64,000 nucleotides of DNA from Opitutaceae bacterium (GCA_003164715.1 PLTZ01000026.1:712-64711); one strand, 5' to 3'. Counted from the stretch's first letter, positions 42,274-57,300 are shown. Notes: generated by a model not told the origin, from the letters alone. Numbers and translations are program-made.

Positions 42274-42479
42274 TGCCCCGCGGGGCGCATGAAGGCGTCC
42301 GCACCAGGCTGACGGCCCCGCCGCACACTGAAGCGCGCCCCCTTTAGGCCTGCAAAAAATGCACGATGTTGGTCCAAAAACGCGGAGCCGTGGCGCGCCT
42401 GAGGGCCTACACTTCGCTCGCCCGAACCCGCTGCGCGTGCGCCCGCGCCGGATCCGCGGCCGAACCCCCTTTCGATCCG

Positions 42480-45296
42480 ATGAAGCCATTTCACGATGGG
42501 CGCCTCGTGGTCATCGCGGCCCTTGCGGCGGCGGGATCCGGGTGCATTGCCTCGGCCGCCGCGCGCAGGGACCCCGTGTTTCCTACGGCGTCAGTCGTGG
42601 CGAACCAGCCGATGGGGGTGGCCAAGGGAATCTACCCCGGCCGGGTGGTCTGGGTCCATGATCCGACCGCCGTCAACCAGGCCTGCGTCGTGGACGCCCC
42701 GGGCCACGGGTGGTACCTGAGCGAGAACAACAACCAGGCGGTGATCGACGGGATGGTCTCGATGGCGCTTCGGAACCTCGCCGGGAGCAACAGCGACGCC
42801 GGCGCCTGGGACGCGATCCTCAGGTACCACAACGCGGCCCGCGGAAAGGGGGCAGTGGGGTACACGAGCGGCGAGAAGGTCTTCATCAAGATCAACGCCA
42901 CGAGCGCGTGGGACGGGAATTTCGACCCGGTGGAGCTCACCCCCGACGCCTACATCTCGGAGACCTCCATGGGGCCGGTCCTGAGCGTCCTGCGCCAGCT
43001 GGTCGGCGTCGTCGGCGTGAGCCAGCAGGACATCTACGTCGGCGACCCCATGAAGCACATCTACAAGCACCTCTACGATGTCTGGCACGGGGAGTTCCCG
43101 GGGGTCCACTACCTCGACAACGGCGGCTACGAGAGCCTCGGCCGGGAGTCCGTGGTGCCCAGCACGACGGCCATCATCCACTACTCCGACCGGGGAACGA
43201 TCCTCATGACCGACCCCGGTGACCAGCCGGTCAACCAGGACTACCTCTACACGGTCTTCGAGGACGCGGAGTATCTGATCAACATCCCGATGCTCAAGGG
43301 GCACATGCGGGCCGGGATGACGATGTTCGCCAAGAACCACTTCGGCTCGCAGACTCGCGTCGACGCTTCCCACCTGCACGGCGGGCTCGTGGCCCCCGCC
43401 GAGGCGCCCAACGTGACGCGGGGCACGTACGGGCTGTACCGGGTCCAGGTGGACATCCTGGGGCATTCGCTCCTCGGCGGGAAGAACCTCGTCTACCTGA
43501 TGGACGCCCTGTGGGCGACCGACTACGAGCTGGACGTCCCCCTCAAGTGGCAGATGCCGCCTTTCAACAATGGCTATTCGGCGTCGCTCTTCGCTTCGCT
43601 CGACCCGGTTGCGATCGAGTCGGTCGGCTACGATTTCCTGCGCTCGGAGTTCACGGCGGAGCGCGTCCCCGCCGCCGGCACATATGTGCAGATGCCGGCC
43701 GTGGACGACTACCTCCGCCAGGCCGCGGACTCCGCGAACTGGCCGGTCACGATCATGTACGACCCGGACAACTCCGGCCTGCCGCTCGGGAGCCTCGGCA
43801 CGCACGAGAACTGGAACAACGCCGCGAGCATGCAGTATTCAAGGAACCTCGACCCGGCGGGTACCGGCATCGAGCTCATCCAGGCCGGCCAGAACACCCG
43901 GACCGAGCGGCTCGCGGACCAGACGGCGGGCACGGGCGGCACGGCGGCGTTCTCCGTCGTGGCCATTGGGACAACCCCGCTCACCTACCAGTGGCAGCGG
44001 CAGGCGGCGGGGAGCCAGGGGTGGACCAACCTTAGCGACGGCGCGACCTACGCGGGGTCGACCACGAGCACGCTCACCGTGAGCGGTGCGGCGCTGCAGA
44101 TGAACGGCGACCAGTTCCGCTGCGTGGTCACAAGCGCAGTGGGCCCCAGCGTGACGTCGAACGCGGCCGTGCTCGACGTCGTGATCGTGCCGACGATCCT
44201 CCTGCAACCCGCCTCCTGCGCGGCGGGTGCGGGAGCCCGGGTCCTGTTCTCGGTGCTTGCGACCGACCCGAGCGCGCTCAGCTACCAGTGGCTCAAGGAC
44301 GACGCGGATATTCCTGGGGCCACGGCGGCCGTTCTCGCCCTCCCGAGCGTCGGAGCCGCAGACGCGGGGGTCTACACGGTGTACATTCGCAACGCCACGG
44401 GAGGCTCGATCACCACTGCCGGTGCCGTGCTTGCGGTGAGCGCCCAGGCGTTCGCGGCGCCCCCATCGGCGCTAACCAACATCTCGACCCGCGCCCAGGT
44501 CGGCACGGGCGCCGGAATCATGATCGCGGGCTTTGTCGTGGGCGGGACCGGCGCCAAACCGCTTCTCATCCGCGCTGTCGGACCGGCCCTCACGGGCTTC
44601 GACCCCGTGGGCCTGAACGCCGGCGTGGTGCTCGCCAACCCCGTGCTTCAGCTCACCAAGTCCGACGGGACGGCGCTTCTTTCCAACGAGGGCTGGGGGG
44701 GCGATCCGGCCATCGCGGCCGCGGCGGCCGGCGCGGGCGCCTTTGCGCTTCCTCCGGGCAGCTCGGACGCCGCCATGGTCGTCACCCTTCCCCCGGGCGC
44801 CTACACGGCCCTCGTGACCGGCAAGAACGGAGCCACCGGAGTTGCCCTGGTGGAGGTCTACGACCTGGACACCTCGGCGGCCTCGCGCCTGGTCAACATT
44901 TCGACCCGAGTCCAGGCAGGGACCGGCGCGCACTCGCTTATCGCCGGGTTCGTGGTGGCGGGCTCTGGTGCGCGCAACGTGCTCGTTAGGGCCGTGGGGC
45001 CCTCCCTGACCCCGTTCGACCCGACCGACTTCGGGCCCGCGGTCGTGCTTGCCGACCCGCAGCTGGAGCTGACCGGGCTCAGCGGACAGGTGCTCGGGTC
45101 GAACGACGACTGGTATTCGGACAATGGCGCGGCGATCGCCGCGGCCGCCGCCGCCGTCAACGCATTCACCTTGGAAGTCGGCTCCAAGGACGCCGCCCTG
45201 CTTTCAAGCCTCGGCCCCGGAGCGTACACCCCCGTCGTCTCCGGCAAGGACGGCGGCACGGGCATCGCGCTTGTGGAGGTCTACGAGGCGCCGTGA
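42480..45296 (+). CDS. Large secreted lipoprotein: DUF362-like domain + two YQW-type Ig-like domains + two C-terminal ~130 aa modules
   Basis: ORF 42366..45296 trimmed to the ATG at 42480 (MKPFHDGRLVVIAALAAAGSGC, lipobox). It has DUF362-like blocks VFIKINATSAW and INIPMLKGHMRAGMTMFAKNHFG. Two Ig-like repeats are present (PLTYQWQRQ..., ALSYQWLKDD...GVYTVYIRN). Two tandem NISTR...LIRAVGP...GAYT...ALVEVY modules follow. Confidence 0.7.
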   Translation: MKPFHDGRLVVIAALAAAGSGCIASAAARRDPVFPTASVVANQPMGVAKGIYPGRVVWVHDPTAVNQACVVDAPGHGWYLSENNNQAVIDGMVSMALRNLAGSNSDAGAWDAILRYHNAARGKGAVGYTSGEKVFIKINATSAWDGNFDPVELTPDAYISETSMGPVLSVLRQLVGVVGVSQQDIYVGDPMKHIYKHLYDVWHGEFPGVHYLDNGGYESLGRESVVPSTTAIIHYSDRGTILMTDPGDQPVNQDYLYTVFEDAEYLINIPMLKGHMRAGMTMFAKNHFGSQTRVDASHLHGGLVAPAEAPNVTRGTYGLYRVQVDILGHSLLGGKNLVYLMDALWATDYELDVPLKWQMPPFNNGYSASLFASLDPVAIESVGYDFLRSEFTAERVPAAGTYVQMPAVDDYLRQAADSANWPVTIMYDPDNSGLPLGSLGTHENWNNAASMQYSRNLDPAGTGIELIQAGQNTRTERLADQTAGTGGTAAFSVVAIGTTPLTYQWQRQAAGSQGWTNLSDGATYAGSTTSTLTVSGAALQMNGDQFRCVVTSAVGPSVTSNAAVLDVVIVPTILLQPASCAAGAGARVLFSVLATDPSALSYQWLKDDADIPGATAAVLALPSVGAADAGVYTVYIRNATGGSITTAGAVLAVSAQAFAAPPSALTNISTRAQVGTGAGIMIAGFVVGGTGAKPLLIRAVGPALTGFDPVGLNAGVVLANPVLQLTKSDGTALLSNEGWGGDPAIAAAAAGAGAFALPPGSSDAAMVVTLPPGAYTALVTGKNGATGVALVEVYDLDTSAASRLVNISTRVQAGTGAHSLIAGFVVAGSGARNVLVRAVGPSLTPFDPTDFGPAVVLADPQLELTGLSGQVLGSNDDWYSDNGAAIAAAAAAVNAFTLEVGSKDAALLSSLGPGAYTPVVSGKDGGTGIALVEVYEAP
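44472..45293 (+). repeat. Tandem duplication of a ~133 aa protein module (copy 1 at 44472-44870, copy 2 at 44889-45293); third copy at 34209-34592
   Basis: Copy 1 reads LTNISTRAQVGTGAGIMIAGFVVGGTGAKPLLIRAVGPAL...PPGAYTALVTGKNGATGVALVEVYDLD. Copy 2 reads LVNISTRVQAGTGAHSLIAGFVVAGSGARNVLVRAVGPSL...GPGAYTPVVSGKDGGTGIALVEVYEAP. The copy in gene 33489..34595 reads LGNLSTRGFVGTGQNILIGGFVIQGGPKLVLIRVLGPGL...EAGAYTTVVTGASGDTGTALVEAYEV. Confidence 0.65.
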
Positions 45297-45358: not shown

Positions 45359-46498
45359 TCAAGGCTGCCGTCCGGCAACCGCGGATTCGCCCGGACCCAG
45401 CAGGCGGGAGAACGATCCCATGGCCTCGGCGAATTCGGCGGGAGCAAAATCGGGCTGCGATTGCGCCAGCTCGAACAGGCGGTCGAGCTGACTGGATACG
45501 CCGGCGCCCCGCTCGGCGGGTGGAAGCGCGCCGACCAGCCGGTCCAGTGCCAGGACCAGACGCTCGGCCCGGTAAGCCTGCTGCAGGGCCGGAATCCCTG
45601 CGTCAAGGAAGTCCCCCTGGGTGGCGGATAGGCGGCGCAGCGCGGTCCAGGTGTCCCGCGGTGTCCAAGCGCGCGCCGCGCGCCTGGCGAGCTGGTCGGC
45701 TGTAGCCATCGTTTCAACGAGCTCGTTGCGCGAAGGGGCGGCCGCGTCGTGTGGAGCGCTGGCGCTTGTCAAGCCACTCCGGTTCGCGAGCCAAGCCAAG
45801 CCTTGCCAAGTCAGCACGGCCCGATCCGAGGCGGCCGAGCCATTGAGCAGGGACCAGCTGGCCTCACGCAACGCCACGGATTGCCCGACACACCACGCCT
45901 GTGCGCCCGCGAAGGGGGGAATTTCCCGCCAGTGCCGGGGCTCGTCCTGGGTCTGGCCGTCGAGCTCGAATACCAAGGTCGGGTGGCGGCCCGAGCGGAC
46001 GATCTCGGGATCAATGTTTTGGTGGCATGCCACACAGGTGTTCGCCCGGGTGTAAAGGTCGTTCAGGTCGCGCATCCCAGCCGCAACCCGGTCGGCATGG
46101 GTCCAGTCGGGGCGGGTGTGCCCCCGGAGCCAGCCGTCGGGCAGCGCGTGGCAGCTGACGCACGACACCCCCTCGGCCGGGTCCGCCCCGGTCCCCGGAG
46201 GCGCGCCGGCCAGGGGTGCGTGGCAGACAACGCAACGCGAGCTTTGCTCGGGGTGGGGGATTCCGAGCGCCTCGCCCATTCGCGCGGCGCGGGCGGTGGC
46301 CAGGGTGGCATAGGAGCGGGAGTGCACATCCCGCTGCGACCAGGTGACAAACTGGCTGCTCTTGTCTCCCGCCCCCCCGTGACAGCTGCTCGCTGAACAG
46401 GAATTCGCCCCCAGGGAAACGGCCTCCGCAGCCCGGACCCTCAAAAGGAGGGCAACACCCAAGGCGAAAATCAATCGATTCTTGTTGGCCGATTTCAT
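45359..46498 (-). CDS. Secreted multiheme c-type cytochrome (cytochrome c554-like N-terminal domain)
   Basis: Signal peptide MKSANKNRLIFALGVALLLRVRAAEA. It has three canonical CXXCH motifs (CVVCH, CVSCH, CVACH) plus an N-terminal CSASSCH (CX4CH-type). The C-terminal ~200 aa are heme-free and helical. Confidence 0.8.
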   Translation of the reverse strand: MKSANKNRLIFALGVALLLRVRAAEAVSLGANSCSASSCHGGAGDKSSQFVTWSQRDVHSRSYATLATARAARMGEALGIPHPEQSSRCVVCHAPLAGAPPGTGADPAEGVSCVSCHALPDGWLRGHTRPDWTHADRVAAGMRDLNDLYTRANTCVACHQNIDPEIVRSGRHPTLVFELDGQTQDEPRHWREIPPFAGAQAWCVGQSVALREASWSLLNGSAASDRAVLTWQGLAWLANRSGLTSASAPHDAAAPSRNELVETMATADQLARRAARAWTPRDTWTALRRLSATQGDFLDAGIPALQQAYRAERLVLALDRLVGALPPAERGAGVSSQLDRLFELAQSQPDFAPAEFAEAMGSFSRLLGPGESAVAGRQP

Positions 46499-46537: not shown

Positions 46538-47902
46538 ATGGTCCGCAAGGTCAGCTCTTCCAGCAGCAAATTGCATGGATTGGGTCCGACCGGGCAACTC
46601 TACAACGAAATGCTAGCGAAAATATTGGATGCGATCGCAGCGCATCCGGCGCTGTACGTCGGGTTGCTGACCGTCTTTTGCTTGGTCCTGCAGGTTTTCC
46701 TCCTGGGCGCGCAGGGCGTCGGCCGGATGCTCGACGATCGCAAGCGGGCCGTACTCGAGCGCCGCCGCCTGGAATTGGAGATCGAGAAGGCCCGCCTGCA
46801 CATCAAGGCGGCGGAGGAGGCCAAGCAGGCGTGGAATGGGGTCCGCAAATTCGCGGTCGCCCGGAAGATGCTGGAGTGCGCGGACACCTTCTCCTACTAC
46901 CTCGAGCCCCACGACCGTCGGCCGCTGCCGGCCTTCAAGCCGGGGCAGTACCTGACCTTCCATCTCAACGTCCCGGGTGCCAGCAAGCCGATCGTGCGGT
47001 GCTACTCGCTCTCCGACATGGCGCGGGCCACGCACTACCGGGTCACGATCAAGCGCTGCGCGGCCCCGGAGGGCTCGCCGCACCCGCCGGGCGTCGGGTC
47101 CTCCTTCTTCACCGACCAGGTCAAGGTGGGCGACATCCTGGATGTGAAGGCCCCCAGCGGCCATTTCTTCCTCGACATCGAGAAGGACCGGCAGGTCGTG
47201 CTCATCTCGGGCGGGGTGGGCGTCACCCCGATGATGGCCATGGCGCAGGCCCTGAAATACGCGGGCTCGACCCGCGAGATCTGGTTTTTCCACGGCGCCC
47301 GCAACACCAAGGACCACATGATGCGGGAGGAGATGGCCGCGCTGGCGGCCGACTACGAGCATCTCCGAATGCACATCTGCTATTCCAAGCCGCTCGAAAC
47401 CGACGTGATGGGACGGGATTACCAGCACGCCGGGCGGGTGACGGTGGAGCTGTTCAAGCAGCTCCTCCCCTCGAACAATTACGATTACTTCCTCTGCGGC
47501 CCCGGACCCTTTATGGAGACGATCACGGAGGACCTGCGCAAATGGGGCGTCCCGGACGCCTGGGTGCATTTCGAGGCCTTTGGCCCCGCCTCGGTCAAGC
47601 GCACGGCCAAGCCCGAGACCAAGGTGGGGGTAACGGTGCCTCCAATGGGCGGGATCGACGTCACCTTTGCGAAATCCGGCCGCACCCTCACGTGGCAGGG
47701 TTCCGGCCTGTCGCTCCTGGACCTGGCCGACGAGAACCAGATCAAGATCGACGCGGGCTGCCGCGCGGGAAACTGCGGCTCCTGCCTCGTGGCCATTAAA
47801 TCGGGCACGGTGGAGTATCTCGGGGCGCACGCCGACGTCGAGGACGGATCCTGCCTGGCCTGCGTCTGCCGACCCGCCTCCGCACTCGTCATTGACGCAT
47901 AA
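46538..47902 (+). CDS. Membrane-anchored FNR-type flavoprotein reductase with C-terminal plant-type 2Fe-2S ferredoxin domain
   Basis: N-terminal TM helix (ALYVGLLTVFCLVLQVFLLGA) followed by a coiled coil. It has the FAD motif RCYSLS, the NAD(P)H motif LISGGVGVTPMM, and CGPGPFM. The 2Fe-2S motif is CRAGNCGSC (CX4CX2C) plus a distal CLAC. An alternative start at 46610 (MLAKIL) is possible. Confidence 0.8.
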   Translation: MVRKVSSSSSKLHGLGPTGQLYNEMLAKILDAIAAHPALYVGLLTVFCLVLQVFLLGAQGVGRMLDDRKRAVLERRRLELEIEKARLHIKAAEEAKQAWNGVRKFAVARKMLECADTFSYYLEPHDRRPLPAFKPGQYLTFHLNVPGASKPIVRCYSLSDMARATHYRVTIKRCAAPEGSPHPPGVGSSFFTDQVKVGDILDVKAPSGHFFLDIEKDRQVVLISGGVGVTPMMAMAQALKYAGSTREIWFFHGARNTKDHMMREEMAALAADYEHLRMHICYSKPLETDVMGRDYQHAGRVTVELFKQLLPSNNYDYFLCGPGPFMETITEDLRKWGVPDAWVHFEAFGPASVKRTAKPETKVGVTVPPMGGIDVTFAKSGRTLTWQGSGLSLLDLADENQIKIDAGCRAGNCGSCLVAIKSGTVEYLGAHADVEDGSCLACVCRPASALVIDA

Positions 47903-49626
47903 TGAGCAAATCGAATGCAGGCCTGAACCGGCCCAAGCGCTGGGATTTCGCGTTCAGCGATGAGATGTCCGACCAATTGGTGGACCGCATCATGCAGATG
48001 GCACCCTTCAGGGACATGGACCCGGAGGGCTTCCCCCGCTCGGCCCAGCTGCCGGACATCCTGAAGAACGATGCGCGCCTGCGGGTCTTCGAGCCCGGCG
48101 AGATTGTCGTCCGGCAGGGGGACTACGGCAACAGCGCCTTCATGGTCTTGACCGGGTCGGCGGAGGTCGTGCTCAGCCCCGGCCTGCCGCCCCGGCTGGA
48201 GGGCCGCAGCGAGCCCAAGCGGAAGCGATGGCTTCACCTGCTGGGCCAGTTTATCGGTAACTCGCGCGAGGACGAGGTGGTCCGGACCTCTTCCGCGCGG
48301 CCGGCCGGCGTGGCGCCGTCGGCCCAGGGGACGGCGCGGGGCGTGATCCTCCAGGACGTTCCGCGGGTCCTGAGCGGGCAGCGCACCGCGACGATCCGGG
48401 AGAGGGATTTTTTCGGGGAGATCGCCGCGCTCTCGCGGCTGCCCCGGACCGCGACCATCTTGGCCGGGGTCCAGGGGGCGGAGATGCTCGAGCTCCGCTG
48501 GCAGGGGCTGCGCGACCTGATGCGAAACGCTCCGCAGCTGCGGCGGTTCATCGACGGGATCTACCGCGAGCGGGCCCTGTCCACGTTCCTGGACGCGTTG
48601 CCCTTCATCAAGTACCTGAGCCCTGAGGCCAAGCAGGAGCTTATGGACGCCACCCAGTTCGAGACCTATGGGGAATACGACTGGTCCGGCGACTACAAGC
48701 AGCTGATCAAGAAGGGTGCCTCCGCAGCCCAGGAACCGACCATCGCGGTCGAGGGCGACTATCCCAACAGCGTCGTCATTGTCCGCGCCGGGTTCGGTCG
48801 CCTGACCCAGCGCTACGGCAACAGCCACCGCACCCTCAACTATCTCGGCTCTGGCAAGATGTACGGCTTCGACGAGATCGCCCACAACTGGCGCGAGCCG
48901 AACCACCACGTGCCGCTGCAGTACACCCTGAGGGTGATCGGCTACACCCACGTCGTAGTGATCCCGGCCGCGGTGGTCGAGCGACTGGTGCTGCCCGTCC
49001 TCCCCAAGTCGTCGCTGCCGCCCCTCATCCCCCAGGACCGGCGGACCCGGCCGCGGTTCGAGCCCGCCGCCGGCGACGCCGCCGGGCCCAGGATCCCGCA
49101 GGACGTGATGGAATTCGTCACCCAGGGCCGGTTCTTCAACGGCACGAAGACGATGGTGATCGACCTGGACCGCTGCACGCGGTGCGACGACTGCGTTCGG
49201 GCCTGCGCCGATACGCACGACAACAACCCTCGCTTCCTCCGGTATGGCCCCATCCATGACAACCTGATGATCGCCGAGGCGTGCATGCACTGCGCCGACC
49301 CGGTGTGCATGATCGGTTGCCCCACGGGCGCGATTCACCGGGATACCTTTGCCGGGAGCGTGGTGGTGAACGCCGACACGTGCATCGGCTGCTCCGCCTG
49401 CGCCAACAACTGCCCCTACAAGGCAATCCGGATGGTGGAGGCCCGCGACGCGGACGGGGAGATCCTCGTGGCCAGCGACTCGAATCCCATCCACAAGGCC
49501 ACCAAGTGCGATCTCTGCGTCGACCAGTTCGGCGGTCCGGCCTGCGAGCGCGCCTGTCCTCACGACGCCCTCACGCGGATCAACCTCAACACCACGCACG
49601 AACTGGCCCGGTGGCTGCAGCGATGA
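47902..49626 (+). CDS. Cyclic-nucleotide-binding-domain protein fused to a DmsB/HybA-like four-cluster 4Fe-4S ferredoxin domain (cytoplasmic)
   Basis: The first cNMP domain is FEPGEIVVRQGDYGNSAFMVLTGSAEV...FFGEIAALSRLPRTATILA. A second degenerate cNMP-like domain follows. Four Cys motifs are present: CTRCDDCVRAC, CMHCADPVCMIGCP, CIGCSACANNCP and CDLCVDQFGGPACERACP. There is no signal or TAT peptide. The start overlaps the upstream stop (TAATG). Confidence 0.8.
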   Translation: MSKSNAGLNRPKRWDFAFSDEMSDQLVDRIMQMAPFRDMDPEGFPRSAQLPDILKNDARLRVFEPGEIVVRQGDYGNSAFMVLTGSAEVVLSPGLPPRLEGRSEPKRKRWLHLLGQFIGNSREDEVVRTSSARPAGVAPSAQGTARGVILQDVPRVLSGQRTATIRERDFFGEIAALSRLPRTATILAGVQGAEMLELRWQGLRDLMRNAPQLRRFIDGIYRERALSTFLDALPFIKYLSPEAKQELMDATQFETYGEYDWSGDYKQLIKKGASAAQEPTIAVEGDYPNSVVIVRAGFGRLTQRYGNSHRTLNYLGSGKMYGFDEIAHNWREPNHHVPLQYTLRVIGYTHVVVIPAAVVERLVLPVLPKSSLPPLIPQDRRTRPRFEPAAGDAAGPRIPQDVMEFVTQGRFFNGTKTMVIDLDRCTRCDDCVRACADTHDNNPRFLRYGPIHDNLMIAEACMHCADPVCMIGCPTGAIHRDTFAGSVVVNADTCIGCSACANNCPYKAIRMVEARDADGEILVASDSNPIHKATKCDLCVDQFGGPACERACPHDALTRINLNTTHELARWLQR

Positions 49627-50450
49627 GGGTGCGCCGGCTCTTGAACCGCCTTTCCTACCCGGTCTGCTTCCTCATGGCCGGCGCCGCGGCGCTTTGGGAG
49701 TTCCCGCGGGCGCGGACGGCCTATCCGCGGCTGGACTACTTGACCGGCTGGTTGCTGATGGCGGCGGTGCTCTTTCTCACCGCCTATAACGGCAGGAAGA
49801 AGATTGCCTTCCTGCCCCTCGCCAGCTCGCGGGCCTGGCTGCGCGTCCATGCGTGGCTCGGCATGCTGACCGGCCTCGTTTTTTTCCTCCACACCCGCTG
49901 GCGGGCGCCCTCCAGCCCCTTCGAGCTCGCCCTGGCCGCCCTATTTGTCGCCGTGACCCTGAGCGGGCTGGTCGGCTGGGGGCTCTCGCGCATCCTGCCG
50001 GGACGCCTCACCACCGCCGGCGGCGAGGTGCCCTACGAGAGGATTCCCGTGATCCGGCGTGCGCTGCGGGAAAGGGCCCAGGAGCTGGTCCTCGAGGTCG
50101 TGCCGACGGCGGGGACCACGACCCTGGCGGATTTCTACGCCGCCCGGCTCAGTCCGTTCTTTTCCGGCCCGAAGGGCTTCGCCTCGCACCTGTTCGGCTC
50201 GGCCCGGACCCTCAAGGGTCTCTTGACCGACATCGACCAGGTGAAGATGCACCTCGGCGACCACGAGAAGTCGGCCGCCATCGAGCTGGCCGCCCTCGTC
50301 CGTGAGAAGGACGCACTCGACCTGCACCGCTCGGTCCAGCTGGTCCTGAAGGGCTGGCTCTTCGTGCACATACCGTTGACCTACGGGTTGCTCGCCTTCG
50401 TTGCAGTCCACGTGGTGCTGGTCTACTCGTTTGCCGGGGGGGCGCGATGA
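49623..50450 (+). CDS. Polytopic membrane protein with conserved-looking His in TM helices (possible b-heme/ferric-reductase-like transmembrane electron carrier)
   Basis: ORF 49281..50450 trimmed to the ATG at 49623, which overlaps the upstream stop (ATGA). It has about 5 TM helices. Histidines lie inside or next to helices: WLRVHAWLGMLTGLVFFLHTRW, WLFVHIPLTYGLLAFVAVHVV. The function is inferred, not recognised. Confidence 0.55.
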   Translation: MRVRRLLNRLSYPVCFLMAGAAALWEFPRARTAYPRLDYLTGWLLMAAVLFLTAYNGRKKIAFLPLASSRAWLRVHAWLGMLTGLVFFLHTRWRAPSSPFELALAALFVAVTLSGLVGWGLSRILPGRLTTAGGEVPYERIPVIRRALRERAQELVLEVVPTAGTTTLADFYAARLSPFFSGPKGFASHLFGSARTLKGLLTDIDQVKMHLGDHEKSAAIELAALVREKDALDLHRSVQLVLKGWLFVHIPLTYGLLAFVAVHVVLVYSFAGGAR

Positions 50451-52156
50451 GCCAGGGCAAGGTTCCGTCCCCCCATTTCGACGATTCGCGCTATGAGCGG
50501 CCGAACAAGGGCTGGCTGTGCGGCCACACCTGCGAAGGCTGCCCCTGCCGGATCGGGCCGAGCCCGAAGGGCCAGTGCCGCGCGACGACCGAGTGCACGC
50601 CGCGGCTCGTCCTCAAGCCCGGGGAAACGAAGGGGACCTGGGCCTGTACCCGGCAGGCGGACTGGGGCGGGCCCTGCGAGCCGGGCCCGTTGCCGGACGG
50701 GCAATGCTGCCGTCAGATTGAGCGGTGCCGGCCCGTGCGCAGCCTGCGCAAGCGCCGGGGCCTCGTGGTCGCGGCGGTCCTGGCCGTCTGCCTGGGCATC
50801 CTCATGATCGGGCTCTCCTGGCCGCTGCGGGCCTCCTTCATCAGCCCCCGCCCGCTGTCCGAGCACCATTCCGGGGCCGCTTTCGCGCGCATAGGCAAAA
50901 ACCCCGCCGACCAGGGCTGCGCGCATTGTCACGGCAACGCCAATGCCAGGTTCGGCGAGCTGGTCTTCGCGGCGGTGGCGGCTTCCCGGACCTCCCTCCG
51001 GTTCTCCGAGCTACCCTCCGGCCATCCCACGGACTTCTCCGCGATGGACCGGTCCTGCCTCGCCTGCCACGCGGCCAAGTCGTTCCACCATGCCAATGTG
51101 GCGGCGAACGACTCCTGTTCAATCTGCCACCGCGAGCACCAGGGCGGCGGCCCGATGGCGGCGGTCACGCCCGCCAACTGCGTCGGGTGCCACGGCGACG
51201 CGGTGCAGATGGCCGCCGCCCGGGAAAAGGGGCGACTCCTGCCCGCGGCGCTCCTGGCGCCGCGGTTGCCGCCCGGGGTGATCGTCCCGCCGGTTCCCCG
51301 GCCATCGACCGGCTACACCGAGGTCATCACCAGTTTCGCCGTCGACCACCCGGAATTCCGGGTGCTCCGCGACCATATTCCGGACCCGAATACCCTGCGG
51401 TTCAACCACCGGCTGCATCTGGGCGGCTCCGACATCCCGCTGGTGAACGGCCGGCCGCTCGACTGCGCCTTCTGCCACGCCCCGGATGCTTCCGGCGCGT
51501 TCAAGAAGCCCGTGCCCTTCGAGACGGCCTGCAGGGTCTGCCATGACCTCAGCTTCGACGAGCACAATCCCGGCCTCGTCCTGCCTCACGGGGACCCGGC
51601 CATCGTGCGCGCCTTCCTGCGGAGCTTGCCCGTGCAGTACGCCGATTACGCGAACCGAAGGCTGGGCCTCGGCGGCAAGGACCAGATCGACGCCTTTGTC
51701 CGGTCCCAGGTGCGGTCCCTGCGGGAGCGGGCGCGCAGCGGTGAGGACCTCGAACAAGTGGTGTTCCTGAGCACGATGGCGAAGGGTCCGGTGCCAGGCA
51801 TCGCCGGTTCCGGAGTGGTCGGGCGGACCCGGTTCTCCGGCTGCGCGCTTTGCCACCAGGTCTCCTGGCGGGGAGGCGCGGCGGTTCCGATCGTGGCGGC
51901 GCCCCGGCCGCCGGACCGGTGGCTACCCGGAGCCCGTTTCAGCCATGCCTTCCATGAATCGGTCGCCTGTGCGGATTGCCACGCCGCGGCGAAGAGCGAG
52001 CGAACCTCCGACGTGCTGATTCCGACGCAGCAGAGCTGCGTCCGCTGCCACAGCCCCAATGGCGGGGTCGCAGATTCCTGCACGACCTGCCATACGTTCC
52101 ATAACCCGCCGCCCGCGTCTCCGGCCGCCAGGACGCTCGCGACCTCGCAGCCTTGA
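50447..52156 (+). CDS. Membrane-anchored decaheme c-type cytochrome with Cys-rich N-terminal (cytoplasmic-side) domain
   Basis: It has ten CXXCH motifs: CAHCH, CLACH, CSICH, CVGCH, CAFCH, CRVCH, CALCH, CADCH, CVRCH, CTTCH. The N-terminal ~100 aa contain 11 Cys (WLCGHTCEGCPC...QCCRQIERC) ahead of RKRRG and one TM helix (LVVAAVLAVCLGILMIGLSW). The start overlaps the upstream stop (ATGA). Confidence 0.85.
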   Translation: MSQGKVPSPHFDDSRYERPNKGWLCGHTCEGCPCRIGPSPKGQCRATTECTPRLVLKPGETKGTWACTRQADWGGPCEPGPLPDGQCCRQIERCRPVRSLRKRRGLVVAAVLAVCLGILMIGLSWPLRASFISPRPLSEHHSGAAFARIGKNPADQGCAHCHGNANARFGELVFAAVAASRTSLRFSELPSGHPTDFSAMDRSCLACHAAKSFHHANVAANDSCSICHREHQGGGPMAAVTPANCVGCHGDAVQMAAAREKGRLLPAALLAPRLPPGVIVPPVPRPSTGYTEVITSFAVDHPEFRVLRDHIPDPNTLRFNHRLHLGGSDIPLVNGRPLDCAFCHAPDASGAFKKPVPFETACRVCHDLSFDEHNPGLVLPHGDPAIVRAFLRSLPVQYADYANRRLGLGGKDQIDAFVRSQVRSLRERARSGEDLEQVVFLSTMAKGPVPGIAGSGVVGRTRFSGCALCHQVSWRGGAAVPIVAAPRPPDRWLPGARFSHAFHESVACADCHAAAKSERTSDVLIPTQQSCVRCHSPNGGVADSCTTCHTFHNPPPASPAARTLATSQP

Positions 52157-52173
52157 AACGGGGCCTTGTCGCA

Positions 52174-54345
52174 ATGTCGGTCGTCCTACTGCTGGTCGCC
52201 TGCGCACACGTGGCGTCAGAGGCCGGCAAGCCGCGGCCAAGGGCCCGCCAGCGGCCGAGCGAGGGCCCTCCCCCGGCGGAGCCCGGGACGGTCCGCCTTG
52301 ATCCCGGGGCGCCATTGCCGCCGTTGCCCCCGGTGTCGGGCCTGCCGCCCCTCCACGTGGTGAGGGTGCCGGAAGGGCGGGCGCAGCCGGGCACCCAGTT
52401 CAACCCTGATCCCGGCGCCTCCGGGCTGGCGACCCCCGCACCGGAACCGCCCCTCTTTACCACTTGGACGGGCGAGGACCTCGTTGCGTCCGCACCGATC
52501 CCGACCGCGCAGGGCGACCTGTACCGCGCCCAGATCGAGCCGGCGCCGGCGGCGACTCCCACGGTTCCCTTTGGGACGGATCCCCTGCCGCCGGCACTGA
52601 AGCTGCCGCGGCCGGGCGTGAAGGCCAACGAGTACATTCCCACGAACTGGCAGGCGCCGGACCACTATTCCCCGGTCGACCCCAGCGCCGAGTACCCCGG
52701 GGCCGAGCTGGTCCGCGACCGATGGTCGGTCGGTTACCAGCCGTGGCGCCGGTACTCCGTCGGCAATCCCGAGGAGATGCCCTATTTCTTCCCGGCCCCA
52801 GCGCTGTGGCACTTTTACCGCCAAAGCCGACTGAAGGGCGATGTGCCGATTCGGGGCCCGGACCTTTTCCTTCGGCTCACCGCCGCCGAGTCGCTGACCG
52901 CGGTGGAAGCCCGGGTGCCCGTTCCGGGCGGCGAGGCGCGGGCGGTCCCGGGCGGCCCCGATTTCTTCGGCGGGAGCACGGAGCGGTTCGTTGAGTCGGA
53001 CTTTGCCTTTGAGGCCGACCTTTTCCGGGGTGACACCGTGTTCCAGCCCTCCGATTGGCTGGTGCACCTGAAGACGGTCATCGACTTTAACCACCTTGAT
53101 TTTCGCGAGACGTGGCGGGAGGACCCTGGGGCGAAGTCCGGCGCCGGCGAGGACACCGTGGTCGCACCCACCACCCGGAATCGAAACTATTTCGCCCTGG
53201 AGGAGGCGTTTGTGGAGAAGCACCTGACGAACCTCTCGCCCAATTTTGATTTTTCCTCGGTTCGCATCGGCAACCAGCACTTCAACAGTGATTTCCGGGG
53301 TTTCGTATTCAACGACACCGACTTCGGCGCCCGGCTGTTTGGCAACTACGACTCCAATCGGTGGCAGTACAACCTGGCGCTCTTTGACCTGCGGGAGAAG
53401 GATGCGGATTCCGGACTCAACACCCTGCGGCGCCGGGGCCAGCTAGTCGCGGTGGCCAATTTATACCACCAGGATTCGTGGCTTCCGGGCTATACCACAG
53501 AGGTCAGCGTGCTCGCCAGCTTTGACCAGGGCGACCCGTACGCCGACGACAATGGCTTGATGGTGCGCCCGGCGCAGCTGGGCGCGGCGCGGCCGCACCG
53601 GGTCGAAAGCTACTACCTCGGTTGGACCGGCGAGGGCCACCTCGGCCGCTGGAACCTCACCGACGCCCTCTACCTGGCCACCGGCCGGGATGATTTCAAC
53701 AGCCTCTCGGGCCAATCCGAGGATATCCTCGCCGGGATGGCGGCGGTGGAGGTCAGCTATGACCGCGACTGGCTCCGGTACAAGGCGGTGGGCTTCTTTG
53801 CCTCCGGCGACCAGCACACCCGCGGCGATCTGGCGACCGGATTTGACTCGATCGACGACGACTCCAATTTGGCCGGCCCGTTCAGCTACTGGCTGCACCA
53901 GAGTTTCAACGCCTCAGGTTCCGGCCTGAGCCTCAAGCAGCCGGCGAGCCTCCTGCCGGACGTGCGCGCTGGCGCCGCGGGGGAGGGCGAGGCCAATTTC
54001 GTCAACCCGGGACTGCTTCTGGCTGGCCTCGGCGCGGAGGCGGACCTGACGCCCAGGCTGCGGGCCTTCGCCAACGCCAATTACCTTTGGTTCGATGCCA
54101 CCGACCCGATCAGGACCCTTTTGCCGGGCAGCGTGGTGTCCCCGAACATCGGCACCGACCTGAGCATGGGATGCCAGTGGCGGCCCTTCCTGATCAGCAA
54201 CGTGGTCCTTTCCGCTGGGTGCGGCTTCCTGCTGCCGCAGGCCGGCTTCAAGGCGATGTACCGGACTCTGCCACCGCCGGAGCGAGGAGTCGGGGTTGAC
54301 GATTTCCTCTACAGCGCGATCCTCGCCGCCACGTTCACCTACTAG
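52174..54345 (+). CDS. Putative outer-membrane beta-barrel protein (porin/alginate-export-like), lipoprotein-type signal
   Basis: MSVVLLLVACAH gives a lipobox (LVAC). A Pro-rich ~150 aa linker is followed by long amphipathic beta-like sequence (SVRIGNQHFNSDFRGFVFND, WQYNLALFDL, YYLGWTGEGHLGRWNLTDALYL, ANANYLWFD). The C-terminus AILAATFTY has the aromatic-terminal OMP signature. An alternative TTG start at 52153 overlaps the upstream TGA. Confidence 0.6.
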   Translation: MSVVLLLVACAHVASEAGKPRPRARQRPSEGPPPAEPGTVRLDPGAPLPPLPPVSGLPPLHVVRVPEGRAQPGTQFNPDPGASGLATPAPEPPLFTTWTGEDLVASAPIPTAQGDLYRAQIEPAPAATPTVPFGTDPLPPALKLPRPGVKANEYIPTNWQAPDHYSPVDPSAEYPGAELVRDRWSVGYQPWRRYSVGNPEEMPYFFPAPALWHFYRQSRLKGDVPIRGPDLFLRLTAAESLTAVEARVPVPGGEARAVPGGPDFFGGSTERFVESDFAFEADLFRGDTVFQPSDWLVHLKTVIDFNHLDFRETWREDPGAKSGAGEDTVVAPTTRNRNYFALEEAFVEKHLTNLSPNFDFSSVRIGNQHFNSDFRGFVFNDTDFGARLFGNYDSNRWQYNLALFDLREKDADSGLNTLRRRGQLVAVANLYHQDSWLPGYTTEVSVLASFDQGDPYADDNGLMVRPAQLGAARPHRVESYYLGWTGEGHLGRWNLTDALYLATGRDDFNSLSGQSEDILAGMAAVEVSYDRDWLRYKAVGFFASGDQHTRGDLATGFDSIDDDSNLAGPFSYWLHQSFNASGSGLSLKQPASLLPDVRAGAAGEGEANFVNPGLLLAGLGAEADLTPRLRAFANANYLWFDATDPIRTLLPGSVVSPNIGTDLSMGCQWRPFLISNVVLSAGCGFLLPQAGFKAMYRTLPPPERGVGVDDFLYSAILAATFTY

Positions 54346-54364
54346 GGCCGAAGCCACCCCCGTG

Positions 54365-57300
54365 ATGCCCCCGTCCCTGATGCCCGCCGGATTCCTCGCC
54401 CGCCTGATTGGAGCGGTGCTTGGCGTGGCCGTGGCCGGGAGCGTCCTTGCATCCAAGACGGCCGGCGCCAGTGACGAACCCGGGGTGTCCATCTTCGGGC
54501 CGCCGGTCTCTGTGCCGCGCGACGCCCGCGCGGACGGGGCCGCGCTCCCGCCGCCGAAGGAGCGCAACTGGATCGACCAGACTCCGGAGGCGGCGCGCCG
54601 GAAGAGCGCAGGCTGCCTGGAATGTCACTCCGGGGTGGAGACCATGCACTCCTCGCCCGACGTGGTGCTGGGCTGCGTCGACTGTCACGGCGGAGACCCG
54701 ACGCCCGGGCTGACCCAGCGCAAGGCCCACGTCAGACCGCTGAACCCGGTATTTTGGGAAAGTTCAGCCAAGCCGGCCGACTCCTCGGTCCTGCTGAACC
54801 ACGAATCTCCCGATTTTATCCGTTTCGTGAACCCGTCCGACCTGCGGGTCGCCGGGCAAGCCTGCGGTCCCTGCCACGGCGAGATCGTGACCCACGTCGG
54901 CTCGAGCATGATGAACCACGGTGCGATGCTCTGGGGGGCCGCCTTGTACAACAACGGCTCAACCCCGTTCAAGAATTACCGGTACGGCCAGGCGTACGCC
55001 GGCAATGGCGAGGCGCTGCGCCTTGAGAGCCCCATCCCCGTGACCCCGGAGATGACCATCCTGCACGGCCTGCTTCCCTTCCTGGAGCCGCTGCCGCGCT
55101 TCGAGGCCAGCCAGCCCTCCAACATCCTCCGCGTCTTCGAGGAGGGCCAGCAGAAGCAGCTGGCCCTCGGCAACCCCGACCCCGAGGATTCCCCGGGACG
55201 CCCGGCCCACCGCCTGTCCGAGCGTGGGCTCGGAACGCTCAACCGGATCGACCCCGTGTTCCTCAACCTCCAGAAGACGCGCCTCAACGATCCGCTGCTG
55301 GGGTTCATGGGGACCAACGACCATCCCGGGGATTATCGCTCGTCGGGCTGCGCCGCCTGCCACGTCATCTACGCCAACGATCGGTCCCCGACCAACTCGG
55401 GCTGGTGGTCAAAGTACGGGAACCAGGGCCTGAGCTTCACCGCCGACACGATGATCTCGAAGACGGAGAAGGCGCACCCGATCCGCCATCAGTTCACCCG
55501 CAGTATCCCTTCCAGCCAGTGCATGTCCTGCCACATGCACCAGGGAAACCTCTTCGTTAACCCGTTCCTAGGCTATATCTGGTGGGACCAGGAGAGCGAC
55601 GGCGAGTTCATGTACCCTTCCAAGCAGAAGAACCCCACTGAGAAGGAGATGGCCGACTCCGTGCTCCACAACCCGGAAGCGGCCGCCGCGCGGGGGCTGT
55701 GGGGCGATCCCGATTTCCTCGAAAAGGTCGCCGAACTGAACCCCAAGCTGAAGCAGACGCAGTTCGCGGACTACCACGGGCACGGGTGGGTCTTCCGCGC
55801 GGTGTTCAAGAAGGACCGGGAGGGCACGCTCCTCACCCTGGATGACAAGCCGATCGACCATAACGACCGGGAGAAATTCTCCAAGGCGGTCCACCTGAAG
55901 GACGTCCACCTCGCCCGGGGAATGCAATGCGTGGACTGCCACTTCCAGACAGACGTCCACGGCAACGGGCTCCTGTACGGCGAGCCGCGGGCGGCTACCG
56001 CGATCGAGTGCATCGACTGCCACGGGACGATCGACCGGCGCCCGACCCTGCGCACGAGCGGGAACTCTGGCACCTTCACCGAGGGCCATGTCGAGCCCAT
56101 TGACCTGGCCAAGGGATCGACCCCGTGGGGGCCCCGTTTCTACTGGCAGGGCCCGCGCCTCTTCCAGCGGTCCATGATGTCGCCGAATGTCGTCTGGGAG
56201 GTCCCGCAGACCCGGGACACGATCGACCCCTCCTCCCCGCGGTACAATGCCAAGTCCGCCTATGCGAAGACCCTGCGCAGGGACGGAAGGAGCTGGGGCG
56301 GCGTTCCCACCAAATCCGTGGGGCTCATCACCCCGGAACTCGCGCATGCGAACTCGAACATTTCCTGCGCCATCTGCCACACCTCGTGGGCGACCAGCTG
56401 CTTCGGCTGCCATTTGCCCATGCGGGCCAACAAGGCGGTCGCGGCCAACAAGTTCGAGGGAATCACGACCCGCAACTACACGACCTACAATCCCCAGGTG
56501 GTGCGCGACGACGTGTTCATGCTGGGCCGCGACGCCACCTACAAGGACCACCGGCTCGCGGTCCTGCGGTCGTCGAGCGCCGTAATCGTGGGCTCCCAGA
56601 ACTCCAACCGGGAATGGATCTATGCGCAGCAGCAGACCATTTCCGCCGAGGGCTATTCCGGGCAGGCCTTCAACCCGCATTTTCCCCACACCACCAGCTC
56701 GGTCGGCACGACCAAGAACTGCACCGATTGTCATCTTTCGGCGGCCAATGACAACAATGCCTGGATGACCCAGCTGCTGGGCTTCGGCACGGGAACGGTC
56801 AATTTCTTTGGCCGCTTTGCCTATGTCGCGTCGGGGCCGGCCGGCTTTGACGCCGTCGCCTGGACGGAGGAAGAGGAGCCCCAGGCGGCGATCGGCAGCC
56901 ACCTCCAGCACCTGGCCTATCCCGACAACTATCGGCGGCACGTGGAAACCAACGGCGGCGTGCTGCAGGAATCGTATCACCACGCGGGCGAGGACATCCG
57001 GGATCTCACCATCCGGGGAGAATACCTCTACACCGCCAACGGGCCCGGGGGCTTCGAGGTCTTCGACGTCGCCAACGTGGCCAACAAGGGATTCTCGCAG
57101 CGGATCGTCTCCGCACCGGTGTCGCCGCTCGGCCAGCGGCTCTGGGTCAAGACCAAGTACGCCACCAGCGTGGTCCTGCCGACCACCTTGGGGGTCGACC
57201 CGCTGCGCTCCCACCGGCCGGAAAACGAGGAACAGCCGATCAGCCCCATCTATGGCTACGTCTACGTGACGGACCGCTACGAGGGCCTGGTCACGGTGAT

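Follow-up and report, generated by a model that had tools for sequence, protein, structure and literature searches.

The gene at 50447-52156 (+ strand) of a 64,000-nucleotide stretch of DNA from an Opitutaceae bacterium (GCA_003164715.1, PLTZ01000026.1:712-64711; hereafter the window) encodes a decahaem cytochrome c of 569 residues, in which a cysteine-rich N-terminal domain is followed by a signal-anchor helix and a periplasmic domain with ten CXXCH haem motifs. Judged by the content and order of the surrounding genes, the protein is PtdG of the porin–cytochrome cluster known as PCC4 or ptd, which has already been published and is uncharacterised. The cysteine-rich domain, as profile comparison of its two halves indicates, is a tandem duplication of a four-cysteine module, with a functional core of eight cysteines and not eleven. 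It is encoded next to PtdF, a putative dihaem b membrane protein, and close to PtdE, a protein with four [4Fe-4S]-type motifs. The interpretation favoured here is that the domain binds metal, probably as iron–sulphur (Fe-S) clusters, and constitutes the cytoplasmic interface of a PtdF–PtdG electron wire: taken as a whole, this is a tentative reading, held with a confidence that falls just short of even.

Three gene callers (Logan, ENA and JGI), working on identical contigs, agree on the open reading frame (ORF). The original prediction had described about 100 residues with 11 cysteines ahead of a single transmembrane (TM) helix that follows the sequence RSLRKRRG, and the translation bears this out: 11 cysteines lie within residues 1-104 (P = 3.5e-9 against the 0.9% cysteine background of the window), and the cysteine strings that had been quoted (CGHTCEGCPC ... 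QCC ... RC) are exact. The end that had been assigned to the domain, 50810, needs correction, as this position is located inside the TM helix (50762-50821). In total PtdG contains 12 non-haem cysteines, at positions 25, 29, 32, 34, 44, 50, 67, 77, 87, 88 and 94, plus C115 within the helix. The ten CXXCH motifs begin at residues 158, 204, 224, 245, 340, 362, 466, 508, 531 and 545.

The protein can be divided into a series of segments, all encoded on the + strand. An N-terminal leader (residues 1-19, 50447-50503) ends in Y16-x-R18-P19; all 109 full-length homologues share Y16, R18 and P19. Cys module 1 (residues 20-53, 50504-50605) reads W23-x-C25-x8-C34-x2-G37P38-x3-G42-x-C44-x5-C50-x-P52 and also contains C29 and C32, neither of which is conserved. 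A variable linker (residues 54-61, 50606-50629), shorter in more distant homologues, is predicted to form a beta-hairpin with its flanks, and leads into Cys module 2 (residues 62-97, 50630-50737), which reads W65-x-C67-x9-C77-x2-G80P81-x3-G85-x-C87(C88)-x6-C94-x-P96. The basic juxtamembrane stretch RSLRKRRG (residues 98-105, 50738-50761), a positive-inside determinant in which R98, S99, R101 and R104 are invariant or nearly so, precedes the signal-anchor helix LVVAAVLAVCLGILMIGLSW (residues 106-125, 50762-50821; Kyte-Doolittle 2.81), the sole strongly hydrophobic segment of PtdG. On the periplasmic side a juxtamembrane motif (residues 126-141, 50822-50869) shows conserved R128, F131, N133, P134, L137 and S138. 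The haem region (residues 158-549, 50918-52093) encompasses all ten CXXCH motifs and matches Pfam Cytochrome_C7 and Paired_CXXCH_1. Ten motifs are likewise present in 94 of the 109 long proteins (at least 480 residues) that an exhaustive search of representatives recovered, and in nearly every untruncated PtdG homologue encoded in the related loci. The periplasmic part ranges from ~430 to ~1280 residues in four Phycisphaeraceae loci (L062, L065, L071, L077) and three alphaproteobacterial ones (L069, L074, L080); these size differences are due to low-complexity acidic, proline-rich or 'DILSG' repeat inserts, with the N-terminal domain and the ten haem motifs remaining constant.

An alignment of 326 non-identical sequences separates the cysteines into two groups, so that the question of whether all eleven are invariant receives a divided answer: C25, C34, C44, C50, C67, C77, C87 and C94 are 98–100% conserved, whereas C29 (38%), C32 (40%) and C88 (72%) are not and show no strict co-occurrence. 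As many as 67 of the 326 sequences lack C29, C32 and C88 altogether and retain the eight cysteines alone; by this distribution the three additional residues are lineage-specific and dispensable. Histidine never takes the place of any of the eight invariant cysteines. Complete or nearly complete invariance extends to W23, R18-P19, E49, R69 and many glycines and prolines. When residues 20-56 were aligned with residues 62-100 by hhalign, a probability of 95.8% (E 6.6e-9) was obtained, and pooling of the two modules disclosed nine invariant columns in common, from which a signature of ~35 residues emerges: W-x-C-x8/9-C-x2-G-P-x3-G-x-C-x5/6-C-x-P. Mean-field direct coupling analysis (effective number of sequences 205) yielded top couplings that are mainly gap-driven, among which three cross-module pairs alone look meaningful: E49-R69, I36-I91 and T48-Q86. 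These couplings suggest that both modules pack as one unit. Two homologues (P0245 and P0246) harbour N-terminal domains with three four-cysteine modules, the second of them also having 11 CXXCH motifs; the three-module variants are consistent with one metal centre per module.

The full-length family comprises at least 448 members at E ≤ 1e-5, mainly from Opitutaceae and other Verrucomicrobiota, which are annotated as 'cytochrome c3 family' or 'hypothetical'. A degenerate-pattern scan located the domain in 213 species genomes belonging to at least five phyla, with hosts among Verrucomicrobiota, Planctomycetota, Alpha- and Gammaproteobacteria (Methylococcales), Gemmatimonadota and Myxococcota: the arrangement is more general than the original prediction supposed. 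An exhaustive search with a two-module hidden Markov model returned 636 clusters at 50% identity. Throughout the best 150 of these 636 the domain is N-terminal, the exceptions being a handful of sequences, P0001 and P0144 among them, that are artefacts of gene calling or of frameshifts, and the extra-module copy in P0246. A single-module profile run against a 5.8-billion-protein index for the module in other architectures recovered two short fragments of the same family only. Six of the loci carry implausible species labels: L021, L024, L030 and L050 are labelled Akkermansia muciniphila, and L044 and L076 Bifidobacterium. All six derive from environmental metagenome-assembled genomes, several of them from lakes, and the labels are probably taxonomy errors in the deposited assemblies.

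Searches for a known fold were negative at every level. Neither Pfam nor NCBIfam, whether scanned with the whole protein or with the domain alone and at thresholds as loose as E = 10, gave a match on residues 1-130; PDB sequence-profile searches with two-module and single-module profiles gave zero matches at E ≤ 10; and comparison of an AlphaFold2 (AF2) model with the PDB by Foldseek produced no match, the best being the EGF-like Pfs25 (E 4.2, TM-score 0.17). The view that the architecture is not a standard one thus stands, and the N-terminal domain defines a new, unannotated family with a diagnostic motif. The AF2 model, built on a 106-sequence alignment, has a mean predicted local distance difference test (pLDDT) score of 80.5, rising to 83–90 over residues 20-100; a model from a shallow 28-sequence alignment scored 58 and was not used. 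It is nearly devoid of regular secondary structure, with the exception of one hairpin whose strands at residues 53-55 and 64-66 lie around the linker between the modules. The fold is confidently predicted and poor in secondary structure, as is typical of cofactor-stabilised knots.

The cysteine spacing itself matches none of the classes compared. Within each module the invariant cysteines are separated by 8/9, 9 and 5/6 residues and none are closer than five, which leaves no CXXC or CX4C; the closer spacings in the window protein come from C29 and C32, present in 38–40% of members. The ferredoxin-type [4Fe-4S] pattern CX2CX2CX3C(P) does not occur in residues 1-104, where no Fer4 or other Pfam domain is matched at E ≤ 10. 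The paired ligands of zinc ribbons and knuckles are likewise not found among the invariant cysteines, and no zinc-finger Pfam family is matched even at E = 10. The CCG domain of HdrB, DsrK and GlpC (PF02754; CX31-39CCX35-36CXXC) does not fit either: the CC pair at 87-88 is 72% conserved, there is no CXXC and no Pfam match. A likeness to twin-CX9C (CHCH) proteins and to HiPIP was considered and rejected, as the domain is Gly/Pro-rich and non-helical and the spacing is unsuited. A C-x5-C element, for its part, is found repeatedly in Fe-S sites, such as those of FNR, IscR/NsrR, WhiB and Endo III.

In the interpretation favoured here each four-cysteine module would hold a single metal centre, for which an Fe-S cluster is the likeliest candidate. 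Fe-S is preferred because the invariant cysteines show no zinc-knuckle spacing, because no Cys-to-His exchange is seen in the 326 sequences, because all neighbours are electron carriers, and because the number of modules is expandable in a wire-like manner. The proposition that the centre is Fe-S rather than zinc is regarded as possible, at somewhat below even confidence. Several considerations weigh against the Fe-S relay. Neither in sequence nor in structure does the domain resemble an Fe-S fold, or indeed any other fold, in Pfam, PDB profiles or Foldseek, and the ferredoxin motif with its terminal proline (CX2CX2CX3CP) is missing from it. PtdE already supplies four clusters, so that the need for a further relay is not evident. 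The AF2 model is folded in the absence of any cofactor, a result that is compatible with zinc too. Finally, in a short contig from Verrucomicrobiia (L029:1338-3760) ptdF and ptdG follow a guanylate kinase gene and a YicC-like gene, with no ptdC or ptdE nearby: the pair is placed among housekeeping genes, and co-location with the Fe-S protein is therefore not absolute.

Since PtdE has four clusters and the domain no recognisable Fe-S fold, structural zinc is a serious rival. One Zn2+ would be bound per four-cysteine module, with no redox role, and the domain would act as a rigid platform for docking or assembly in the cytoplasm, clamping PtdE and/or PtdC to the PtdF–PtdG core in the membrane and leaving the last cluster of PtdE to reduce haem b directly. 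Bacterial proteins often carry cytoplasmic Cys4 modules ahead of a single TM helix, zinc-ribbon-TM proteins and ZAS anti-sigma factors among them, and the confident AF2 fold with little secondary structure, the occurrence of two or three modules and the missing ferredoxin-type motif would all be in keeping with zinc. These points have to be set against a minimum spacing of five between invariant cysteines, with no CXXC or CX4C knuckle, the total lack of Cys-to-His exchange at the eight positions and the failure of every zinc-finger Pfam family to match even at E = 10. Both the zinc assignment and the platform that goes with it are considered unlikely, albeit far from negligible.

A third possibility is that the domain is a thiol-based redox or metal sensor, which through reversible disulfides or metal occupancy would gate or stabilise the conduit in concert with the cyclic-nucleotide-binding (cNMP) domains of PtdE. 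The presence of these regulatory domains in the operon and the Cys-rich, basic and cytoplasmic character of the N-terminal domain would be compatible with such a role. Nevertheless, the invariance of eight cysteines and of the surrounding glycines and prolines across phyla, together with a rigid predicted fold, looks structural or cofactor-like and not switch-like, and the vicinal CXXC pairs typical of thiol switches are not there. A sensor is improbable on this evidence.

The topology can be deduced from the distribution of charge and hydrophobicity. In the 274 full-length members, lysines and arginines within 15 residues of the helix average 5.0 on the N-terminal side and 1.7 on the C-terminal side, the former exceeding the latter in 99% of cases, and the N-terminal domain carries a mean net charge of +7. 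A second strongly hydrophobic TM-length 19-mer was found in 0 of the 274, and the sequence behind the helix lacks a conserved A-x-A cleavage site. Covalent attachment of c haem takes place in the periplasm (Ccm/System II). Given a single TM segment, periplasmic haem attachment and the charge bias, the cysteine-rich domain must be cytoplasmic across the family, as far as sequence can tell, in agreement with the positive-inside argument of the original prediction. This arrangement suggests that the decahaem protein is embedded in the membrane as an integral partner of the b-type subunit and is not a soluble periplasmic protein. It also bears on the idea that the domain is periplasmic or otherwise oxidised and folded by four EGF-like disulfides in place of a cytoplasmic metal site. 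The W-x-C element, the Gly/Pro-rich composition, the even number of cysteines and the scarcity of secondary structure are indeed reminiscent of extracellular disulfide knots, and the best, non-significant, Foldseek match is to the EGF-like Pfs25. However, with one hydrophobic segment and c haems that need a periplasmic C-terminal part, the N-terminus has to lie on the opposite side; a basic tail of 100 residues, with a charge of about +7 and five K/R on the N-terminal side of the helix, is not translocatable under the positive-inside rule; and the hosts include ordinary Proteobacteria, whose cytoplasm is reducing. A disulfide-bonded domain is accordingly rated as highly improbable.

The start of the gene is well defined. 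The ATG at 50447 shares bases with the stop codon of ptdF (ATGA), and this 4-nucleotide overlap is preserved in 62 of 73 related loci, the remaining ones being within 11 nucleotides. In comparisons of homologue pairs, dN/dS over codons 1-104 is 0.13–0.27 as opposed to 0.20–0.43 for the haem domain and is lower in all eight pairs, the ratios being approximate because dS is near saturation. The cysteine-rich region is a translated sequence on which purifying selection acts strongly. Codon 97, a GTG in the same frame (VRSLRKRRG...), could yield a conventional signal anchor, and in many homologues residue 97 is E, Q or R, hence no GTG exists there. The JGI calls for four homologues (P0093, P0099, P0105 and P0111) begin at such a GTG preceding the TM helix ('VRSLR...'): these calls strip off the cysteine-rich domain and leave a protein that resembles an ordinary signal-peptide cytochrome. 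The notion that the domain is an annotation artefact or dispensable leader, with the real start at the codon-97 GTG and the 96 upstream codons untranslated or unstructured, can draw on the GTG before RSLRKRRG and on these four calls, and it is effectively refuted, its probability close to nil, by the cross-phylum conservation of amino acids with eight invariant cysteines, the low dN/dS over codons 1-104, the non-valine residues at position 97, the conserved ATGA coupling and the pLDDT of the model. The two ways in which the original prediction considered that it might fail, a start codon downstream of the Cys-rich region and an unstructured leader with non-conserved cysteines, are thereby contradicted: the former by the overlap and by three callers choosing the same ATG, the latter by the eight conserved cysteines and the AF2 fold.

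A run of seven G residues (50436-50442) lies 4 nucleotides upstream of the ptdG ATG, within the ptdF/ptdG overlap region. A PtdF–PtdG fusion in one homologue (P0144) was considered as a Rosetta-stone clue and rejected, since the in-frame join is artefactual and stems from an indel in the G7 run of the ATGA overlap. Two further sequences, P0003 and P0005, in which the frame is lost after 'DGxCC', are likely indel artefacts at G runs.

PtdF (49623-50450, + strand), the PCC4 inner-membrane protein of 275 residues with five predicted TM helices, is encoded immediately upstream of PtdG. Across 67 sequences the motifs W72-x3-H76-x13-H90 (TM3), S114-G115-x2-G118 (TM4) and W245-x3-H249-x13-H263 (TM5) are invariant, and a helical cytoplasmic loop of 120 residues spans positions 119-239. 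Because the four invariant histidines form two H-x13-H pairs, a dihaem b protein is envisaged: PtdF bears the signature of a putative transmembrane conduit with two b haems. A pair of histidines 13 apart on each of two TM helices is the trait of the ferric-reductase superfamily (NOX/FRE/MsrQ). Pfam matches are all sub-threshold (DUF4405, E 0.068; PF01794 Ferric_reduct, E 0.78; also Ni_hydr_CYTB, cytochrome b561), and a PtdF profile compared with the PDB gave coiled-coil noise on the cytoplasmic loop and nothing else.

Upstream of PtdF, PtdE (574 residues, 47902-49626, + strand) combines cyclic-nucleotide-binding domains with a C-terminal module in which 16 cysteines make up four [4Fe-4S]-type motifs and which matches the NCBIfam models DmsB, HydN, NrfC and HybA. 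As no signal peptide or TM helix is present, PtdE is taken to be cytoplasmic. The four motifs are all complete here, compared with two clusters described in the ptd preprint (10.1101/2023.11.21.568154). The number of cyclic-nucleotide-binding domains is two to three, which suggests regulation of the conduit by cAMP, cGMP or another small ligand. PtdC (454 residues, 46538-47902, + strand) displays an N-terminal membrane anchor, FAD_binding_6 and NAD_binding_1 domains and a C-terminal plant-type [2Fe-2S] ferredoxin domain. The genes for PtdC, PtdE, PtdF and PtdG are joined by overlapping stop and start codons. A PtdD-like periplasmic tetrahaem cytochrome with three CXXCH and one CX4CH (45359-46498, − strand) is divergently transcribed, and directly upstream of the cluster lies a gene (42366-45296) whose 976-residue product contains DUF362 and Ig-like domains and, towards its C-terminus, two repeats of ~130 residues (LxNISTRxxVGTG...).

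Downstream of ptdG are two putative components of an outer module. The first, a putative outer-membrane porin-like protein of 723 residues (52174-54345, + strand) with no Pfam match and a lipoprotein-like N-terminal signal, is a variable partner; the second is a large secreted cytochrome of 1293 residues (54365-58246, + strand), putatively outer or extracellular, with ten CXXCH and LVIVD repeats. These lengths refer to the gene-caller starts (52174 and 54365), the mechanical ORFs (52153-54345 and 54296-58246) being probably overlong.

In a set of 80 loci the order PtdC-(PtdD)-PtdE-PtdF-PtdG is kept across phyla wherever enough flank is available, with the sole exception of L029, and the genes for the porin-like protein and the outer cytochrome are found at differing positions or are missing from the flank. 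The N-terminal domain of PtdG is strictly associated with a ten-haem protein and with a PtdF that carries the four invariant histidines. As L029 retains PtdF and PtdG alone, this pair is regarded as the tightest unit; either the pair is separable from the cytoplasmic module or that contig is chimeric. PCC4 subgroup I (Hyphomicrobium) has been reported to lack a gene for the Fe-S subunit, and the single Hyphomicrobiales locus in the set (L074) encodes PtdE.

The neighbourhood allows a path for electrons to be proposed. PtdC, with its NAD(P)H, FAD and [2Fe-2S] sites, would feed PtdE. The N-terminal domain of PtdG, positioned at the cytoplasmic face of the PtdF–PtdG core, would dock the [4Fe-4S] chain of PtdE and/or relay electrons, its target being the cytoplasm-side haem b of PtdF. 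From there electrons would traverse the membrane via the two b haems of PtdF, reach the ten c haems of PtdG and move on to the porin and the outer cytochrome. The original prediction had viewed the domain as a docking or electron-entry point for the Fe-S protein and had overlooked the intervening five-TM PtdF with its four invariant histidines: a single helix cannot pass electrons across the membrane, and entry would consequently be into the b-type subunit and not directly into the c haems. Metal binding, the Fe-S nature of the centre, the contacts with PtdE and PtdF and the direction of flow are what we infer. If electrons from NAD(P)H move outwards they would leave the negative side of the membrane for the positive one; outward flow would thus be favoured by the membrane potential and would consume, not build, the proton-motive force, which points to an electron sink. 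Such a role would suit saccharolytic Verrucomicrobia of humic, anoxic habitats. The flow may also take the opposite, inward direction. In its strongest form, this scheme makes the domain a novel type of Fe-S module with one cluster in each CX8-9CX9CX5-6C repeat, PtdG a protein with cofactors on both sides of the membrane and the whole a quinone-independent NOX-like wire: that full set of claims is put forward with marked reserve, well below even confidence.

The cluster has appeared in the literature under different names. He et al. 2017 (PMC5566968) described PCC4 as a porin–cytochrome cluster with 4-, 5- and 10-haem cytochromes and a PF13247 Fe-S gene; its five-TM protein, with two WX3HX13H motifs and SGXXG, was likened there to a ferric-reductase domain and taken as a quinone-active cytochrome b. 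A preprint of 2023–24 (bioRxiv 10.1101/2023.11.21.568154) named the operon ptdABCDEFG, stated that its function 'remains completely unknown' and called PtdG a 'periplasmic deca-haem protein'. A porin–multihaem cytochrome cluster of Verrucomicrobia was reported in Opitutus sp. GAS368 and IMCC26134 (PMC5615132); both genomes carry the locus found here, and the reported cluster is probably the same one. The word 'cysteine' occurs nowhere in PMC5615132 or in the ptd preprint, nor does 'N-terminal' in the preprint; the cysteine-rich domain is not mentioned in the passages of PMC5566968 that were consulted, and further literature searches revealed nothing comparable. The two-module Cys4 domain, its duplication and the integration of the decahaem protein into the membrane as a partner of the b-type subunit thus appear to be unreported.

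Hosts of PCC4/ptd include Verrucomicrobia of lakes and soil, Planctomycetes, iron oxidisers, relatives of methanotrophs and Alphaproteobacteria abundant in oxygen-deficient zones. The crossing of the inner membrane by electrons is the unresolved step in published ptd models, in which cytochrome b is taken to be quinone-linked and the decahaem protein to be periplasmic and soluble. A conserved Cys8 domain that reaches into the cytoplasm beside an NAD(P)H/FAD/Fe-S module points instead to a quinone-independent link between pyridine nucleotides and the periplasm or the extracellular space. If this is true, Fe-S clusters and ten c haems would be harboured by one polypeptide on both sides of the inner membrane in at least five phyla, and, with the two b haems of PtdF, would form a NOX-like wire operating in either direction between cytoplasmic NAD(P)H and extracellular acceptors. 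The domain offers a concrete target of 100 residues, easy to express, with which the relay idea can be tested. A systematic annotation error also comes to light, as some gene calls begin past the cysteine-rich region.

Comparison with known systems places the window cluster in context. The protein shares with PtdG of PCC4/ptd the ten haems and the location directly downstream of a five-TM WX3HX13H/SGXXG protein, and the cluster also contains the PF13247 Fe-S/cNMP protein, the FAD/NAD/[2Fe-2S] reductase and a tetrahaem cytochrome. It differs in that no pentahaem PtdA or porin PtdB is encoded upstream in the window, ptdD is divergent and a porin-like gene and a gene for a ten-haem LVIVD cytochrome lie downstream: the outer module of the window cluster is a Verrucomicrobia-type variant.

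NapC/NirT/CymA/NrfH proteins likewise have a single N-terminal signal-anchor helix and periplasmic c haems and provide an inner-membrane entry to a periplasmic chain. They are, however, tetrahaem (or pentahaem), have a short Cys-free N-terminal tail and receive electrons from quinol, whereas PtdG has ten haems, a cytoplasmic Cys8 domain of 104 residues and a dihaem b partner; PF03264 (Cytochrom_NNT) is not matched by PtdG at E ≤ 0.01. CbcL, ImcH and MtoC/MtrH of Geobacter and Fe(II) oxidisers also serve as inner-membrane entry or exit points that join helices (with b haems in CbcL) to periplasmic multihaem c domains, but are quinone-linked and devoid of a cytoplasmic Cys-rich domain, and homology to PtdG was not detected. 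A small cytoplasmic Cys-rich domain on a single helix is a feature shared with zinc-ribbon-TM proteins and with RnfB, where it acts as a genuine Fe-S relay on the surface of the membrane. The motifs are different, those of zinc-ribbon-TM proteins being CXXC pairs and that of RnfB CX2CX4CX16C, and the PtdG domain gives no profile match even at E = 10.

As in NarH-NarI, FdnH-FdnI and HybA-HybB, PtdE has four Cys motifs and its gene adjoins that of a dihaem b membrane subunit; in contrast to these systems, ptd has neither a molybdo- nor a Ni-Fe subunit for catalysis and shows no evident quinone site, PtdE carries cNMP domains and the N-terminal domain of PtdG is a third partner on the cytoplasmic face. 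With NOX and FRE enzymes ptd shares the overall plan: a cytoplasmic NAD(P)H/FAD module, two bis-His b haems held by H-x13-H pairs on two helices, and export. The ptd version would be split into subunits, with five helices in PtdF rather than six; it adds a [2Fe-2S] and four [4Fe-4S] centres, and its acceptor would be a decahaem cytochrome c that reaches back into the cytoplasm.

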